Virus record (IMG/VR): IMGVR_UViG_2724679539_000004
Reading direction: 5' to 3' (one strand)
Source: a virus
Taxonomy: Duplodnaviria; Heunggongvirae; Uroviricota; Caudoviricetes
Length of the DNA: 37,547 nucleotides
Part shown: piece by piece, positions 2,289-37,547 of the stretch
Layout: every line of letters starts with the position of its first letter
Numbering within the stretch: position 1 is the first letter of the stretch
Made by a program: the position numbers and the translations under genes
The notes under the pieces: model-generated
Database searches by the model: none
Seen by the model: the letters and a program-made list of their open reading frames with translations, nothing else
Told to the model about the DNA's origin: nothing

Positions 2289-2630
2289 ATGAAACAGCAA
2301 CGTAATTCACGCTTTCGTAATGGTGCTGAACGTCACGCTAACCGTTTCGCTACCAGTGCATCACGCAGCAACATCCGCTACAGCCTGAGTGATACACACG
2401 CAACGCCGGATGGCTACCCAGTAAAACAAATCGGCGAGCATGCCTGGCTGATTGAGAAAGCTGGAATCGTGGTCCACAAATGCCCACGCAATCCGTTTAC
2501 TGGAAACCGCATTTTTGCTCTAAGCAGCGGCGAAAATCAGTTCGGGCAGGATTTCACATTATACGAAGCACTACGCACGGTTGATCGTCTGCTTCGCGGA
2601 CAAAGTTTTATTAAACAGGCTGATTTATAA
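2289..2630 (+). CDS. Hypothetical early protein (113 aa)
   Basis: ORF in early operon; no recognisable motif. Confidence 0.5.
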   Translation: MKQQRNSRFRNGAERHANRFATSASRSNIRYSLSDTHATPDGYPVKQIGEHAWLIEKAGIVVHKCPRNPFTGNRIFALSSGENQFGQDFTLYEALRTVDRLLRGQSFIKQADL

Positions 2631-2640
2631 CAGGTGCTTT

Positions 2641-2928
2641 ATGACCAAAGACCATGCACAAGGTGTATTTATCCGTTTTATTGATTTTCGCGGTGAACTG
2701 TTATTACGCGCATCCGCTATTGATGGAGTGGCTCCGGCGGGTAAAAACGGAGCCGACGAAGCCACTTACGTTTATCTGAACGGCACGCGACTGCTTGTGG
2801 AACTTCCGTACCAGACCGTACGAGAAATCATTAGCAAAGCTGAAAAAGCGCGCCAGGCTAATGGCAATGAACCCTATATCGAAATTATTTGCATGGATTC
2901 AGAAGCTGAAATTCAGAAAGCAGATTAA
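2641..2928 (+). CDS. Hypothetical early protein (95 aa from ATG 2641)
   Basis: ATG at 2641 with aggtg SD; longer ORF from 2581 overlaps previous gene. Confidence 0.5.
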   Translation: MTKDHAQGVFIRFIDFRGELLLRASAIDGVAPAGKNGADEATYVYLNGTRLLVELPYQTVREIISKAEKARQANGNEPYIEIICMDSEAEIQKAD

Positions 2929-2939
2929 AGGGTGTTGCA

Positions 2940-3182
2940 ATGGGCAAAGAATATAAAACACTCATCAACAAAGCACTTGAGCGTTTTTATTTTCGCTTAA
3001 GTGCATCAGGCTCTCATGCTGAACGTGCAGCCCGTGACTCATTGACCAGGGCAATCCGGAGTCTGTATGACGTGGCTTTTTACGCTGATGATCTGGATGC
3101 ACTTAACGAACTTTCCGAGCTAATCTGTGCCGCAGAATGCGGGGAACATATTGAACCGTATAAGCTGGGGAATATCGCATGA
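2940..3182 (+). CDS. Hypothetical early protein (80 aa)
   Basis: ORF in early operon. Confidence 0.5.
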   Translation: MGKEYKTLINKALERFYFRLSASGSHAERAARDSLTRAIRSLYDVAFYADDLDALNELSELICAAECGEHIEPYKLGNIA

Positions 3183-3292
3183 GTATATTTATCTCATGGC
3201 TTGTTCTGATTATTTCTGTGGCCTGCGCCATTGGGATTATGCGAATTATTCATTCAGTAAAAAAGATTGAACGCTTTTTCACTGGCGAATAA
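3179..3292 (+). CDS. Small membrane peptide (37 aa), hypothetical
   Basis: ATGA overlap with upstream stop; MSIFISWLVLIISVACAIGIMRIIHSVKKIERFFTGE, single TM helix. Confidence 0.3.
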   Translation: MSIFISWLVLIISVACAIGIMRIIHSVKKIERFFTGE

Positions 3293-3378
3293 CAGAGCAA
3301 ATAAAACCACAGGTTAAATAAGAAAATGTAAAAACAATCCGCATTCGCGGAGGTATTCGCATACGCCAAGGAGGCGTA

Positions 3379-3582
3379 ATGGCAATTAAGCATTTTCCTG
3401 TCGTTCGTTTTACCTCCAGAGGACGTGAATACGAAGTCGACGAACGCCTGATTACCACAATCGACAAACACCGTTCAGAAAAGGATGCACATCACATCTA
3501 TCTCACTGACGGCACTTACTTCTGCGCCACGAATGTGGTGCAGGTGAACCTTATCCGACAGGTACAGGAGTCACGCAGATGA
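3379..3582 (+). CDS. Hypothetical early protein (67 aa)
   Basis: ORF with aaggagg SD; overlaps next gene start by 4 nt. Confidence 0.5.
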   Translation: MAIKHFPVVRFTSRGREYEVDERLITTIDKHRSEKDAHHIYLTDGTYFCATNVVQVNLIRQVQESRR

Positions 3583-33227: not shown

Positions 33228-33384
33228 AGCTTCAGCCCCTTGTATCCGTTAAATGATTCGGCAACAATCATCACCCACCACGCGCGTAATCTCACCCCTG
33301 CGCCATTCTCCCGCCACGGCGACAACAAAAAGCAGTAACCCCCTCCGCACGCACATGCGACCATGCCGCACAGGGAGGGAACAG

Positions 33385-34494
33385 ATGACCGACACCACCA
33401 TGCAATTGCTCAGTCAGGGCACAGACCCCGTGAAAATGCCGGATTTTGATATTCTCGCGGAGGGTAAAACGCTGTCAGGCGTGGCAGAGCGCCTGATGAG
33501 TCTGTCACTGACCGACAACCGGGGATTTGAAGCGGACCAGCTCACCATCACGCTGGATGATGCGGATGGTCAGTTGCAGCTACCGCCACGGGGCGCGCGC
33601 CTGACGGTTCTCATTGGCTGGAAAGGAGAACCGCTGACAGAAAAAGGCACTTACATTGTTGATGAAATCGCTCACGAAGGACCGCCGGACAGGCTGACTG
33701 TTTCAGCCAGAAGCGCAGATTTTCGGGATGAATTTAACGTTAAACGTGAGGTGTCCTGGCATGATGTGACCGTTGAGCGTGTGGTATCCGCCATCGCTCA
33801 TCGGTACGGTCTGAAACCGCAAATCAGCGAAATGCTGATGGATATCGAAATCGACCACGCCGACCAGACCGAAGAAAGCGACATGTCCTTTCTTACGCGC
33901 ATGGCGGAAATGCTGGGCGCAATCACCACGGTAAAAAGCGGTAATCTGTTATTCATCATGCCCGGCGGTGGCGTGAACGCACAGGGCCAGCCGTTGCCAT
34001 CGTTCGCCATCACACGCAGCAGCGGCGATCGCCATCAGTTCCGCATTGCGGACCGCGAAGCGTATACGGGGGTACGCGCCTACTGGCTTGATCTTAATTA
34101 CGGGAAAAAGAAAAAAGTCAGCGTGAAACGCCGCAAACCGCCAAAACCCAAAAAGGAGAAAAGCAGCAGCCGTGAAGGTGATTATATGGAAGGCGCGGAA
34201 GGCAATGTGTTTGTGTTACGCAAGACCTATCAGAACGAACAGGCAGCAAGACGCGCAGCGGCGGCAAAGTGGCAGCAACTACAACGCGGAGCCGCATCAT
34301 TCTCCATCACGCTGGCGCGTGGACGTGCAGAACTCTACCCCGAAATGCATGGTACGGTAACAGGATTTAAAAGCGAGATTGATAATCAGGACTGGATCAT
34401 TGCAAAAGCCGAGCACACCATTGATAACAGTGGCTTTACCACGCAGCTTGAGCTTGAGGCAAAAATCCCGGAATGGATAGCGGAAACAGAGTGA
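33385..34494 (+). CDS. D: Tail protein D (late control gene D family)
   Basis: 369 aa from ATG 33385 (SD gggaggga); position upstream of ogr. Confidence 0.8.
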   Translation: MTDTTMQLLSQGTDPVKMPDFDILAEGKTLSGVAERLMSLSLTDNRGFEADQLTITLDDADGQLQLPPRGARLTVLIGWKGEPLTEKGTYIVDEIAHEGPPDRLTVSARSADFRDEFNVKREVSWHDVTVERVVSAIAHRYGLKPQISEMLMDIEIDHADQTEESDMSFLTRMAEMLGAITTVKSGNLLFIMPGGGVNAQGQPLPSFAITRSSGDRHQFRIADREAYTGVRAYWLDLNYGKKKKVSVKRRKPPKPKKEKSSSREGDYMEGAEGNVFVLRKTYQNEQAARRAAAAKWQQLQRGAASFSITLARGRAELYPEMHGTVTGFKSEIDNQDWIIAKAEHTIDNSGFTTQLELEAKIPEWIAETE

Positions 34495-34536: not shown

Positions 34537-34797
34537 ATGTTCCGTTGTCCGCTTTGTGGCGCATCTGCCCGTATCCGCACCAGTCGTCCGGAAAATGATT
34601 CAAACACCGTGCGGCAAAAGTATTACCAGTGTAACAACCTGGAATGCGGCGTATGCTTCTCAACACTGGAAGCTTTCCATAAATTCACATCGAAACACGC
34701 CTCCGGCGTTCACTCATCAGAAGGTATCCCGTGGCATGAGCTGCCAGCTTCACACAGGGGAAACAATCAGATGAGTTTGCCTTTATCTCAGAATTAA
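34537..34797 (+). CDS. ogr: Ogr/Delta-type zinc-finger late transcription activator
   Basis: MFRCPLCGASARIRTSR...YYQCNNLECGVCF is a C4 zinc finger like P2 Ogr; 86 aa (P2 Ogr 72 aa). Confidence 0.8.
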   Translation: MFRCPLCGASARIRTSRPENDSNTVRQKYYQCNNLECGVCFSTLEAFHKFTSKHASGVHSSEGIPWHELPASHRGNNQMSLPLSQN

Positions 34798-34987
34798 CAG
34801 GCAGAATTGCCGGAGTAACAAAAAAGCGATAGATTACGCGCGGGTGCCTTTCGGCTGATGGTCGGAGGGAATACCCGAAGGCCAGATGTGGAAAGGCCCC
34901 GGAAAACATCTCTGTTTAACCGAGGCCCTAACCGCATTACCTTAGCAAGTGATAGGTTAGCGCCTCCCTGAAAAAGGAGCAAGCGCT

Positions 34988-35128
34988 ATGTCGCAAAAAT
35001 CGCTTACGGCCATCACGTTCTGCGTGACGGCAATCCTCATCATCTGGATGCTGCACGGTTCGCTGTGCGAAATACGGATGAGCTTCTGGGGAGCGGAGTT
35101 TGCGGCGTTCTTACAGTGTAAGCAGTAA
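34988..35128 (+). CDS. hok: Hok/Gef-family type I toxin
   Basis: 46 aa; N-terminal TM helix then SLCEIR...EFAAF signature of Hok family; SD aaggag; not in ORF track (<60 aa). Confidence 0.65.
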   Translation: MSQKSLTAITFCVTAILIIWMLHGSLCEIRMSFWGAEFAAFLQCKQ

Positions 35129-35204
35129 GGAAACCGCGACGGGGGAGCAATCCCCCGTCAATCGGTTGCCAGGGTAAGGTCGATAAGGCACCCTATCTCA
35201 CAGA

Positions 35205-35239
35205 CATGAACAACAAACCCGCAGCGTAAAAACTGCGGG
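35205..35239 (+). terminator. Rho-independent terminator after hok locus
   Basis: CCCGCAG-loop-CTGCGGG followed by TTTTCTTTTT. Confidence 0.6.
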
Positions 35240-35296
35240 TTTTCTTTTTGGTGCCCTCACAAATGAGGGCACCATACATAAGCAATAGGCATAACA

Positions 35297-35334
35297 GATC
35301 GATGCAATAAATCCGATCGATAAAAACGATCGAT
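35297..35334. promoter_or_regulatory. Cluster of three CGATCGAT (GATC) motifs upstream of com
   Basis: GATC at 35297, 35316, 35329 within 38 bp; overlaps putative -35/-10 (TATCAT at 35339). Confidence 0.5.
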
Positions 35335-35378
35335 TTGTTATCATATCGGCAGCAGTAACCACACAAGAGGTGCCGCAA

Positions 35379-35576
35379 ATGACGCAAAATGTACGATGCA
35401 AAAATTGCAACAAACTACTTGCCCGCGCCTCATTTCACTACATTGAAATAAAATGTCCGCGCTGCAAAACACTTAACCAGATAACGAGAGCCATCGAGCA
35501 CCCCACACACATGAGGAGTTATGACCGTGGGGATCGCAATCCAGCACCAACCAGCACATACACCGGAACACACTAA
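35379..35576 (+). CDS. com: Com-like zinc-finger translational activator
   Basis: 65 aa; VRCKNCNKLL...HYIEIKCPRCKTLN matches phage Mu Com zinc finger as recalled; overlaps start of downstream methyltransferase. Confidence 0.7.
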   Translation: MTQNVRCKNCNKLLARASFHYIEIKCPRCKTLNQITRAIEHPTHMRSYDRGDRNPAPTSTYTGTH

Positions 35577-36312
35577 GGTTTATCAGACTGACAATGCCAC
35601 GCTCTGTCGTGGGAATGCGCTGGAAATATTGCCGCTGATTGAGCCAGAAAGCATTGATGCCTTAATCACTGACCCACCTTACAGTTCGGGTGCGACACAC
35701 AAGGCCGGACGCACCAACCAGGGCAGCCATGCAAAATATCTGAACGGCGAGAACCTTCACCGCTTTGATGGGTTCGCGGGTGAAAACATGGACGCCCGTT
35801 CGTGGGCTTACTGGACACAATTATGGATGGCACAGGCACACCGCGCAGTCAGGCCGGGCGGTTATGCCCTGGTATTTACTGACTGGCGACAACTACCAGC
35901 TTTAACCGATGCGTTTCAGGCCAGTGGCTTTACATGGCGCGGCATCATTGCGTGGAACAAAGGGAGGGGGTCACGAACACCACATACCGGGTATTTCCGG
36001 CATCAGTGCGAATACATCGTCTGGGGCAGCAAAGGCCATTTAGATAAATCGCCTTCGGGACCGTTCGACGGCTGCATGACGTTCCCGGTTATCCCGTCAA
36101 AGAAAATGCACCCAACCGGAAAACCAGAAGAACTAATGGCGGAACTGGTCAGGACTGTGAATAGTGGCGGAACAGTCCTTGATCCTTTTATGGGGTCAGG
36201 GACAACGGGTGTGGCTGCACTGAAAGCAGGACGCAAATTTATTGGTATAGAAACCAGTGATCATTATTTTGATGTAGCAACACAACGGCTCAAAACGGCG
36301 ATCGAACCATAA
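35521..36312 (+). CDS. DNA methyltransferase, beta-class (DPPY before FxGSGTT)
   Basis: 263 aa; motif IV DPPYSS upstream of motif I FMGSGTTGVAA; CcrM/HinfI-like order, N6-adenine or N4-cytosine. Confidence 0.8.
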   Translation: MTVGIAIQHQPAHTPEHTKVYQTDNATLCRGNALEILPLIEPESIDALITDPPYSSGATHKAGRTNQGSHAKYLNGENLHRFDGFAGENMDARSWAYWTQLWMAQAHRAVRPGGYALVFTDWRQLPALTDAFQASGFTWRGIIAWNKGRGSRTPHTGYFRHQCEYIVWGSKGHLDKSPSGPFDGCMTFPVIPSKKMHPTGKPEELMAELVRTVNSGGTVLDPFMGSGTTGVAALKAGRKFIGIETSDHYFDVATQRLKTAIEP

Positions 36313-36332
36313 GACAAAGCCCGCAATGTTGC
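36311..36332 (+). terminator. Hairpin terminator after methyltransferase
   Basis: AAGCCCGCAA-tg-TTGCGGGCTT. Confidence 0.45.
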
Positions 36333-36350
36333 GGGCTTACTCTACCTCTC

Positions 36351-36373
36351 GAAAATGTGGTCACTGCGTGGAC
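36351..36373. other. Candidate attR core (direct repeat of sequence at 11-33 inside int 3' end)
   Basis: gtggTcactgcgtggacaTA vs gtggAcactgcgtggacaCT; 13-bp identical core, 18/20 match. Confidence 0.3.
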
Positions 36374-36539
36374 ATACGCTGATACAAATCCTTTTATATC
36401 AATAAATTAAATCTTTGTTTTTTTCATCAACAAGGATTTTCACGTTTGTGTTACCTGTTTGAGAACGAGAGTTAACCGGGCAAGTGTGCCATAATCTCGC
36501 CGTCAGGCATACTTACGAAGATTTATGATTTAAGGATAA

Positions 36540-37547
36540 GTGATGATGCAACCTATTTCCGGTACTCCACCACGCCCACCGGATATCAACCAAAATCAAC
36601 CAGCCGGGCCAGGCGAACAACCTTTATCAACACAGCAACGCACTGTACTGGAACGTCTGATAACCCGCCTGACTGCATTAACGAAGCAGCAAAGTGCTGA
36701 AGTATGGGCTGCTGTTAAGCATGATCTTGGTATGAAAAGTGATACTCCGTTGCTCTCACGTCATTTTCCCGCTGCGGAAGTTAATCTTAACCAGCGCCTG
36801 CTGCGTGCTCAGCAAACTCACGTGACCCGCCAATTGTTGTCACAACTGAGTGGGCTGCTCAGTCAGGGGAATAATCGCCAGGCTGTCAGCGATTTCATTC
36901 GCCAGCAATACGGTCAAACCGCGCTGAATCAGCTAACTCCTGAACAGTTAAAAAATGTCCTTACGTTGCTCCAACAAGGCAAACTGGCAATCCCGCAACC
37001 ACAGCAACGCACACCAACTGCTCGCCCGTTGTTACCTGCTGAGCATAATACGTTAAAGCAACTGGTGACTAAACTTGCTGCCGCGACCGGGGAGCCAAGT
37101 AAACAGATCTGGCAATCGATGCTGGAGCTTTCGGGGGTGAAGAACGGTGAACTTATCCCGGCGAAACAATTTACCCATCTTGTGACATGGCTACAGGCTC
37201 GTCAGACTTTGAGTTTGCAAAGTGCACCAACGTTGGAAACGTTGCAAATGGCACTGAAGCAGCCGCTGGAACGGGCTGAACTCACTGAACTGCAACATTA
37301 TGCACAGCAAACCTGGAATGTCCTGCCGCAAATGGCGCTCACGTCATCCCAGGTTCTTGATCTGCTTAATCACGTGTTTTTAAAACGTGCGGAGCGAGAA
37401 AGTGGATTTATCGATCCGCGTAATATTCAGCCATTATTTACCCCTTTCCCTCCACTGATGGATACGTTTAAATCCTTCACCGGGAGTACCGGGTTGGTTT
37501 TAATGGCCTTCTTAATTGTGCTCCTGCTTATCTGGTTGGTGATTTAA
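36540..37547 (+). CDS. flk: Host flagellar regulator Flk-like, C-terminal membrane anchor
   Basis: 335 aa; Gln/Pro-rich; PLLSRHFPAAE and C-terminal LVLMAFLIVLLLIWLVI anchor resemble enterobacterial Flk as recalled. Confidence 0.7.
   Translation: MMMQPISGTPPRPPDINQNQPAGPGEQPLSTQQRTVLERLITRLTALTKQQSAEVWAAVKHDLGMKSDTPLLSRHFPAAEVNLNQRLLRAQQTHVTRQLLSQLSGLLSQGNNRQAVSDFIRQQYGQTALNQLTPEQLKNVLTLLQQGKLAIPQPQQRTPTARPLLPAEHNTLKQLVTKLAAATGEPSKQIWQSMLELSGVKNGELIPAKQFTHLVTWLQARQTLSLQSAPTLETLQMALKQPLERAELTELQHYAQQTWNVLPQMALTSSQVLDLLNHVFLKRAERESGFIDPRNIQPLFTPFPPLMDTFKSFTGSTGLVLMAFLIVLLLIWLVI

Follow-up and report, generated by a model that had tools for sequence, protein, structure and literature searches.

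The hairpin found inside the com gene of this P2-like prophage is, as judged by sequence comparison, a real RNA element and the counterpart of the translation inhibition structure (TIS) of the phage Mu com-mom operon, with which, on the same grounds, it shares ancestry. It precedes a gene for a DNA methyltransferase instead of Mom, and the locus as read from its sequence is a Com/TIS switch and not a com-mom operon. By analogy with Mu, the hairpin very probably acts as a translation block in the com-methyltransferase operon that would be relieved by the Com protein.

Genomic context of the com-methyltransferase module

The last 3 kb of the window, by which the entire 37,547-nt stretch of DNA analyzed is meant, represent the right end of a P2-like prophage, and the features identified in this region are collected in Table 1. 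By similarity, the hok-like ORF and the adjoining sok match probably constitute a hok/sok addiction module placed between ogr and com. Positions 35250-35273, in the gap from the hok terminator to the GATC cluster, hold an inverted repeat of 10 perfectly matched bp (GGTGCCCTCA/TGAGGGCACC; loop of 4 nt), which is conserved in the related locus L034 and partly in L037. In E. coli KOr024 (L163, 2114-2410) an extra gene encoding a TM2 domain is inserted between hok and com, the prophage ends being otherwise identical; the hok-com gap is a small variable moron slot in some E. coli strains. At the opposite side, the GC-rich hairpin behind the methyltransferase gene likely marks the end of both the operon and the prophage. 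The adjacent host flk sequence (36540-37547) is 98% identical to that of E. coli E24377A and ~76% identical to that of nearly all other complete E. coli genomes, and this divergence would fit either an unusual flk allele or a flank that is itself divergent or mobile.

Table 1. Coordinates of the features at the prophage's right end
Feature	Position	Strand	Basis or remark
gpD	33253-34494		
ogr	34537-34797		Pfam Ogr_Delta, 5e-14
sok match, sub-threshold	34842-35001		Rfam, 44.8 bits vs gathering score 59
hok-like toxin ORF	34988-35128		Pfam HOK_GEF, 4e-7
Terminator (hok)	about 35215-35242		
Three GATC sites (35297, 35315, 35328; spaced 18 + 13 nt)	35297..35331	.	Mu-like spacing
Promoter-like TCGATA-16 nt-TATCAT, TG extension	35317..35344	+	Consensus scan; overlaps GATC sites 2 and 3
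com, 65-aa Com zinc-ribbon protein (Cys 7, 10, 26, 29)	35379..35576	+	Pfam PF10122 and Mu Com alignment
Candidate bipartite Com-binding motif GAGAGCC-AUC-GAGCACC	35486..35502	+	SELEX-motif match
Translation inhibition structure (TIS), outer 6-bp stem, 20-nt interior	35501..35532	+	Folding and conservation
Lineage-specific inner helix CAUGA/UUAUG, pairs AUG	35510..35523	+	MFE and centroid structures
Shine-Dalgarno GAGGAG	35513..35518	+	AGGA core 35514-35517 invariant among relatives
DNA methyltransferase, beta-class N6/N4 amino-methyltransferase, DPPY motif	35527..36312	+	Read from conserved GUG
GC-rich hairpin directly after methyltransferase stop	36317..36338	.	
Host gene flk	from 36540		

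The 18/13-nt spacing of the three GATC sites upstream of com is identical in Mu and in two related loci (L037, L089). The cluster is bracketed by a 13-nt inverted repeat (ATAACAGATCGAT/ATCGATTTGTTAT, 35291-35303 / 35329-35341), and in L034 the entire cluster is deleted between the repeat arms. In Mu, the GATC sites upstream of the com-mom promoter mediate Dam-dependent relief of OxyR repression. The cluster in the window is the counterpart of this Dam-sensitive region, and it may act in regulation here too, which is only a lead. The promoter-like sequence was the only match in 35100-36500, a count not above the shuffle expectation and thus weak evidence; it is located ~27 nt nearer to com than the promoter of Mu.

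Sequence and predicted folding of the hairpin

The outer stem of the element is a perfect 6-bp helix inside com, formed by CCCCAC (35501-35506) and GUGGGG (35527-35532), and a repeat finder reported it as a 6-nt inverted repeat of 100% complementarity with arms 20 nt apart. The initial annotation had described a hairpin with these arms around GAGGAG (35513-35518) and an ATG (35521-35523), and all of these positions were exact and inside the com ORF (35379-35576). The described hairpin also formed upon folding of the 71-nt segment 35480-35550 (z = -2.03, with 8 of 200 shuffles as good) and appeared more stable relative to shuffles when a 44-nt segment was folded alone (-15.8 kcal/mol, z = -2.84, 2/200 shuffles equally good). 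In a 141-nt context the fold of the whole region was no more stable than shuffles (overall z = -0.29); nonetheless, the hairpin was kept in both the MFE and the centroid structures. The predicted energy of the isolated TIS hairpin is -13.2 kcal/mol, and that of the outer stem alone is -8.5 kcal/mol, compared with -8.7 kcal/mol for the Mu TIS. As evidence that the hairpin is more than a chance occurrence, the comparative data described below are rated stronger than these z-scores.

The MFE structure contains in addition an inner 5-bp helix between CAUGA (35510-14) and UUAUG (35519-23), which pairs the AUG. The predicted probabilities of being unpaired are 0.005 for this AUG, 0.002 for the GUG at 35527 and ~0.8 for AGGAG. 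The earlier description of a loop holding both the Shine-Dalgarno sequence and the ATG is thus accurate for the former, which is mostly unpaired, but not for the latter, as the AUG is predicted to be paired by the inner helix and the loop is not fully open. The inner helix is confined to the E. coli/Salmonella lineage, and the natural variants L024, L027 and L034 break its upper two pairs. The idea that it is a conserved component of the switch was rejected on both grounds, its absence from every other lineage and the broken upper pairs.

The methyltransferase and its start codon

The methyltransferase was recognized by a match to Pfam N6_N4_Mtase (3.4e-33), and DpnA-like adenine methyltransferases are its closest matches among solved structures (8.5e-21); the enzyme is probably adenine-specific. 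Its start is placed by RefSeq/PGAP and by the list of open reading frames at ATG 35521, two codons before the GUG of the 3' arm. The frame opens 12 nt before GUG 35527 and offers two candidate starts, AUG 35521, which is located 2 nt after AGGAG, and GUG 35527, which is located 8 nt after it. An in-frame codon is indeed present at 35521, where the initial annotation had assumed the start, but the conserved start is the GUG at 35527. The AUG in the loop was found in the E. coli/Salmonella lineage only and is absent from the other lineages with the stem. Moreover, L037, which encodes the same methyltransferase family, and L049 and L072, which encode C5 methyltransferases, offer no in-frame start past the upstream stop other than the GUG of the 3' arm. 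GUG 35527 is preferred here because it is the sole start in these three lineages and corresponds to the annotated and accepted start in Mu, with its 7-nt spacing; it is probably the true start, and the RefSeq start would then be wrong by two codons. As both candidate starts are sequestered, the choice between them leaves the main conclusion unaffected. Apart from the start, RefSeq/PGAP, as seen for the module of L163 at 2600-3548, gives com the product name Com family DNA-binding transcriptional regulator, even though Com is known to bind RNA, and both the start codon of the methyltransferase and the name of Com are flagged here as annotation problems.

Com protein and its candidate RNA site

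The product of com matches Pfam PF10122 (Zn_ribbon_Com; 9.5e-12, 44.6 bits vs the curated cutoff of 22.9), and its four cysteines (CxxC...CxxC) align with those of Mu Com. In Mu, Com acts by binding mRNA at a site whose motif was defined by SELEX and footprinting: Nowacka et al. reported GAAUGCCUGCGAGCAUCCC as the native 19-mer, NGAGNNCC(N)2-3GAGNNCCNN as the SELEX consensus and CC(N)2-3GAG in a 6-nt loop as the recognized element (PMC6483171). Positions 35485-35504 of the window (C-GAGAGCC-AUC-GAGCACC-CC) fit this consensus exactly and contain the sole match to GAGNNCCNNNGAGNNCC on either strand of the 37.5-kb window, for a chance expectation of 0.07. C35501 and C35502, with which the 5' arm of the TIS begins, are at the same time the last two bases of the second GAGNNCC copy. 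Forcing 35486-35502 to be unpaired changed the predicted ensemble energy from -19.2 to -12.2 kcal/mol (~7), and extending the block to 35504 changed it to -9.2 kcal/mol (~10).

The small hairpin predicted at this site pairs 35488-35491 with 35498-35501 around a 6-nt loop, C-AUC-GA. In the lineage of the window it is imperfect (GAGC/GCAC, with 3/4 pairs formed and an A.A mismatch at the second pair, which distinguishes it from Mu), and such a weak Com hairpin fits the stronger TIS of this lineage (-13.2 vs -8.7 kcal/mol in Mu). In other genera the NN/NN stem positions covary perfectly, for instance GCAC/GUGC in Acinetobacter, ACGC/GCGU, AGGC/GCCU in Methylophaga, and GAAC/GUUC, and the stem in Vreelandella is GAGC/GCUC. 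A 3-bp CGA/UCG hairpin (35485-87 / 35494-96) predicted by ViennaRNA upstream of the stem was rejected as the Com hairpin because it is not conserved in L038-type loci and L072; the literature register (35488-91 / 35498-501) covaries across genera. Hairpins of the general form GAR-NN-YC, N2-3, GAR-NN-YC with clean covariation were observed from Enterobacteriaceae to Acinetobacter, Neisseria, Methylophaga, Magnetococcales and others (L083-L162), and many loci of Acinetobacter and Moraxella carry two tandem copies.

The position of the site relative to com differs between lineages. It is located 3' of the com stop codon in Haemophilus (L134, L156, L158), L127 and L130, and, by coordinate arithmetic, the sites inside com occupy differing codon registers in L088, L125 and L148 as compared with the window. 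Both observations place the constraint at the level of RNA and not of protein.

Conservation and covariation of the stem

A scan with the Com protein identified 453 related loci in IMG/VR and 164 in GTDB genomes, and 80 were kept from each source. When 25 distinct relatives sharing the stem were aligned over 305 nt, only 32% of columns were invariant, and the arms, CCCCACA (35501-07) and GTGGGGA (35527-33), formed the two longest invariant runs; the next-longest runs include the Shine-Dalgarno AGGA and parts of the Com site. The 20 nt that separate the arms vary freely among the relatives, as exemplified by ACACAUGAGGAGUUAUGACC, AUACACAAGGAAAUCCUGUC and AUACACAAGGAGUCACGCCU.

Pairing was analyzed in 23 distinct sequences, including Mu and four Mu-type relatives, and all six stem pairs are standard in each of them. 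For the closing pair, 18 sequences have C-G and the five of the Mu lineage U-A, a compensatory change that alters neither the His encoded by com nor the Gly encoded by the downstream gene. The true register pairs 90.7% of cells, compared with at most 57% for registers slid by 1-3 columns, and RNAalifold recovers the same six pairs with no structure supplied. The covariation of the TIS amounts to a single change of one pair, between two lineages; the five remaining pairs are invariant and hence uninformative, and the stem is doubly coding (for the Com tail and for the N-terminus of the downstream protein), which complicates arguments from conservation. Position 35501 covaries with both of its partners, being G35488/C35501/G35532 in the window and A/U/A in Mu; this is the pattern expected of a nucleotide common to two mutually exclusive helices, and it again reflects one single evolutionary event. 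Among the covariance models of Rfam 15, no match at E <= 1 overlaps 35480-35540, and there appears to be no Rfam family for either the Com site or the TIS.

Comparison with the com-mom operon of phage Mu

The corresponding Mu sequence (...GAAUGCCUGCGAGCAUCCCACGGAGAAACAUUGUGGGAAAAG...) reads UCCCAC-N11-GUGGGA, and the Com codons it covers are the same (E-H-P-T ... x-G). Both systems possess a Com zinc-ribbon protein, a com gene overlapping the downstream gene, a bipartite GAG..CC Com site located 5' of the stem and overlapping it, and the stem bases (U/C)CCCAC with GUGGG(A/G) at identical Com codons. The curated Mu record AF083977 assigns the ribosome-binding site to a GGAG in the loop (35896-35899) and the start of Mom to the GTG of the 3' arm (35907). 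The initial annotation had compared the hairpin to the Mu stem-loop that occludes the mom start, and this likeness is borne out for the methyltransferase start by the Com protein, the Com motif and the matching stem; it gains further backing from the Shine-Dalgarno sequence in the loop, from the placement of a GUG within the 3' arm, which the curated record shares, and from the 18/13-nt spacing of the GATC sites.

There are also several differences. The interior of the stem measures 11 nt in Mu (GGAGAAACAUU) and 20 nt in the window, where it additionally contains the inner helix and the in-frame AUG, and the predicted stability is above that of Mu. The start geometry is GGAG-7 nt-GUG in Mu, whereas in the window AGGAG is followed after 8 nt by GUG 35527, with AUG 35521 in addition. 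The element belongs to a P2-like prophage, in which it is preceded by gpD, ogr and hok/sok, and the C activator of Mu is absent. The cargo is an N6/N4 DNA methyltransferase in the window and Mom in Mu; Mom (PF25680) was not found as the cargo in the window but is present in Mu and in the relatives L038 and L067.

Taxonomic distribution and exchange of cargo genes

The pairing of com with a methylase gene is already annotated in Mu-like and P2-like phages. Among the Mu-like phages, a com homologue lies directly upstream of a methyltransferase gene, in the place of mom, in Pseudomonas B3 (ORF47/48), Haemophilus FluMu (HI1522.1/hin1523), Neisseria Pnm1 and Hia (Hia5), and a Com-type control was proposed for these modules (PMC3299994). 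Their methyltransferases are Dam-like or of the Hin1523 type, whereas that of the window is an N6_N4 enzyme (DPPY, beta class); in addition, modules of this type have start-occluding hairpins unrelated in sequence, and their com ends before the Com site. For instance, in the H. influenzae locus L134 the Com site is followed by a hairpin, GCCAUAG...CUAUGGC, which pairs the AUG. Among P2-like phages, the accessible text on Burkholderia phage KS5 describes gp21/gp20 as a Com translational regulator overlapping an N-4/N-6 methylase (PMC3091744). The KS5 module is located among tail genes, whereas that of the window lies at the prophage's right end. The P2-like Escherichia phage Chuche is 95.4% identical to the region of the window over 1.1 kb and is annotated with overlapping genes for gpCom control of modification and a DNA methyltransferase. 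The records of KS5 and Chuche annotate genes only, and RNA elements are not described for these phages in the searchable text; nor are RNA elements of the lineage to which the window belongs described in the literature text that was searched. Among 5426 complete E. coli genomes, 173 (~3%) carry the module.

The same com, Com site and TIS precede different kinds of genes. With identical arms, they are followed by an N6_N4 methyltransferase in the window, L034 and L037, and by a C5 cytosine methyltransferase in L049, L068, L072 and L085; they precede Mom in L038, L067, L070, Mu and L076/77. All three types of cargo begin with Val-Gly at the GUG of the stem (GUG-GG), while the similarity between modules stops within ~10 nt past the 3' arm, from where the Com tail diverges as well. 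The L038/L067 (Mom) and L049/L068/L072/L085 (C5) groups share with the window the 20-nt interior and the CCCCAC/GUGGGG arms, and they have an AAGGA(G) Shine-Dalgarno sequence 8-9 nt before the GUG and Com proteins 59-65% identical; they differ in their cargo and in the lack of an AUG in the loop. No ogr was found within 2.5 kb upstream in these groups, and in L068 and L072 a Gin-like invertase is encoded upstream, which suggests a Mu-like rather than a P2-like setting for these two. A "P2-type" label for all sequences with a 20-nt interior was accordingly dropped, as the E. coli/Salmonella group was the only one in which tblastn detected ogr and gpD, and the invertase is present at L068/L072.

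Com loci more remote than these have as cargo a Dam-like D12, N6_N4 or C5 methyltransferase, Mom or a Hin1523-type protein. Hairpins unrelated in sequence pair the start at the same place in these loci, such as GCCAUAG...CUAUGGC in Haemophilus and GCAUCCA...UGGAUGC in Neisseria. In Vreelandella (L129, L142, L152; AGCCACGAG...CUCGUGGCU) and in Neisseria shayeganii (L130; CAUGAGUGC...GCACUCAUG) the Com site itself is the anti-start strand, so that Com binding and occlusion of the start are predicted to be directly mutually exclusive; this wiring is simpler than the adjacent hairpins of Mu. Across 27 Com loci, the start of the cargo gene was paired with P>0.8 in 17, as compared with 12% of 34 control starts (Mann-Whitney p = 3e-5), a test that is rough and supportive only, since starts were assigned automatically and a few are wrong (L086 is off by one codon).

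It is an evenly balanced possibility that com, the Com site and the TIS constitute a portable translational-switch cassette in which the RNA itself is selected, and not the Com tail or the N-terminus of the cargo protein. Such a cassette would have been joined to at least five kinds of DNA-modification genes, namely N6/N4, Dam-like and C5 methyltransferases, Mom and the Hin1523 type. In enterobacteria, the recombination joint would lie within ~10 nt after the 3' arm, hence the unrelated enzymes that all start with Val-Gly, and the single nucleotide 35501 would toggle between the Com hairpin and the TIS.

Proposed regulation and alternative explanations

By analogy with Mu, we infer a Com-dependent activation of translation at this locus, in which Com binding, opening of the stem, use of the start codon and timing would be connected as follows. 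In the free mRNA, the GC-rich 6-bp stem and the inner helix would pair both candidate starts of the methyltransferase and would thereby prevent ribosomes from initiating, despite the AGGAG in the loop. The com gene would be translated first from the same transcript, and its zinc-ribbon product would bind the GAGNNCC-N3-GAGNNCC site at 35486-35502. As C35501 has two alternative partners, G35488 of the Com hairpin and G35532 of the TIS, Com binding would take away the base of the stem and open the TIS, and initiation would then probably take place at GUG 35527, 8 nt after AGGAG. The outcome would be a delay that links a potentially harmful DNA-modifying enzyme to the build-up of Com late in prophage induction. 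In Mu itself, melting of the TIS upon Com binding was not directly observed in the study in which a truncated Com was used (PMC6483171).

The entire hairpin is inside the com ORF, which ends at 35576, 44 nt past the stem, and this overlap is kept in most enterobacterial relatives, so ribosomes translating com traverse the stem. Such ribosomes could themselves open the start-blocking hairpin, in which case binding of Com to RNA would be unnecessary and the methyltransferase output would simply track com translation. Such coupling in cis could operate together with Com binding, but as the main mechanism it appears unlikely. Mu Com is described as an mRNA-binding protein (PMC6483171), and in the window the stem is directly adjoined by a conserved Com-binding motif. 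Both the Com site and the start-occluding hairpin follow the com stop in loci of Haemophilus, Wohlfahrtiimonas and Neisseria shayeganii; these elements are beyond the reach of the ribosomes that translate com, and therefore coupling cannot be the general mechanism. Com of Mu reportedly works in trans as well, according to papers by Hattman and Kahmann from 1987-1991, which is a further point against coupling.

Two other readings would deny the hairpin a role as a translation block. The arms are coding in one or two frames (His-Pro-Thr and Arg-Gly of Com, Val-Gly of the cargo), and EHPT of Com is invariant in the protein alignment, so that their complementarity might be incidental to conservation of the residues and the pairing might have no regulatory role. 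This is very improbable, given that the fourfold-degenerate positions of the arms (Pro CCC 35504, Gly GGG 35531) never vary while loop and zinc-finger codons do, and that the sole change in the stem is both compensatory and synonymous in the two frames. The Com tail is moreover disordered and dispensable for RNA binding (PMC6483171) and, beyond the stem, changes completely with each change of cargo, and it is unlikely that three unrelated enzymes would all need an N-terminal Val-Gly. A stable GC-rich stem-loop between most of com and the methyltransferase gene could, alternatively, be a transcription terminator or attenuator, or an element of RNA processing or stability, which is extremely improbable. 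No U-tract follows the stem, the downstream sequence being AUCGCAAUCC, and the hairpin at 35501-35532 is not among the terminators reported by a terminator scan, on which two grounds an intrinsic terminator was ruled out. Furthermore, the hairpin encloses the Shine-Dalgarno sequence and the starts at the spacing expected of a start-site occluder, and the counterpart in Mu has been termed a translation inhibition structure. A translation block relieved by Com thus remains the preferred reading.

Implications

The present analysis places the riboregulatory switch of the Mu com-mom operon in a module of P2-like prophages with a different cargo, and it provides comparative support, in the form of invariant arms, a compensatory pair and a nucleotide common to both helices, for a long-standing and structurally unresolved model of Mu regulation. 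The loci gathered here would suffice to seed an Rfam family. The switch appears to be modular across many DNA-modification enzymes, and in the prophage studied here it would explain how a potentially harmful methyltransferase is kept silent in lysogens.
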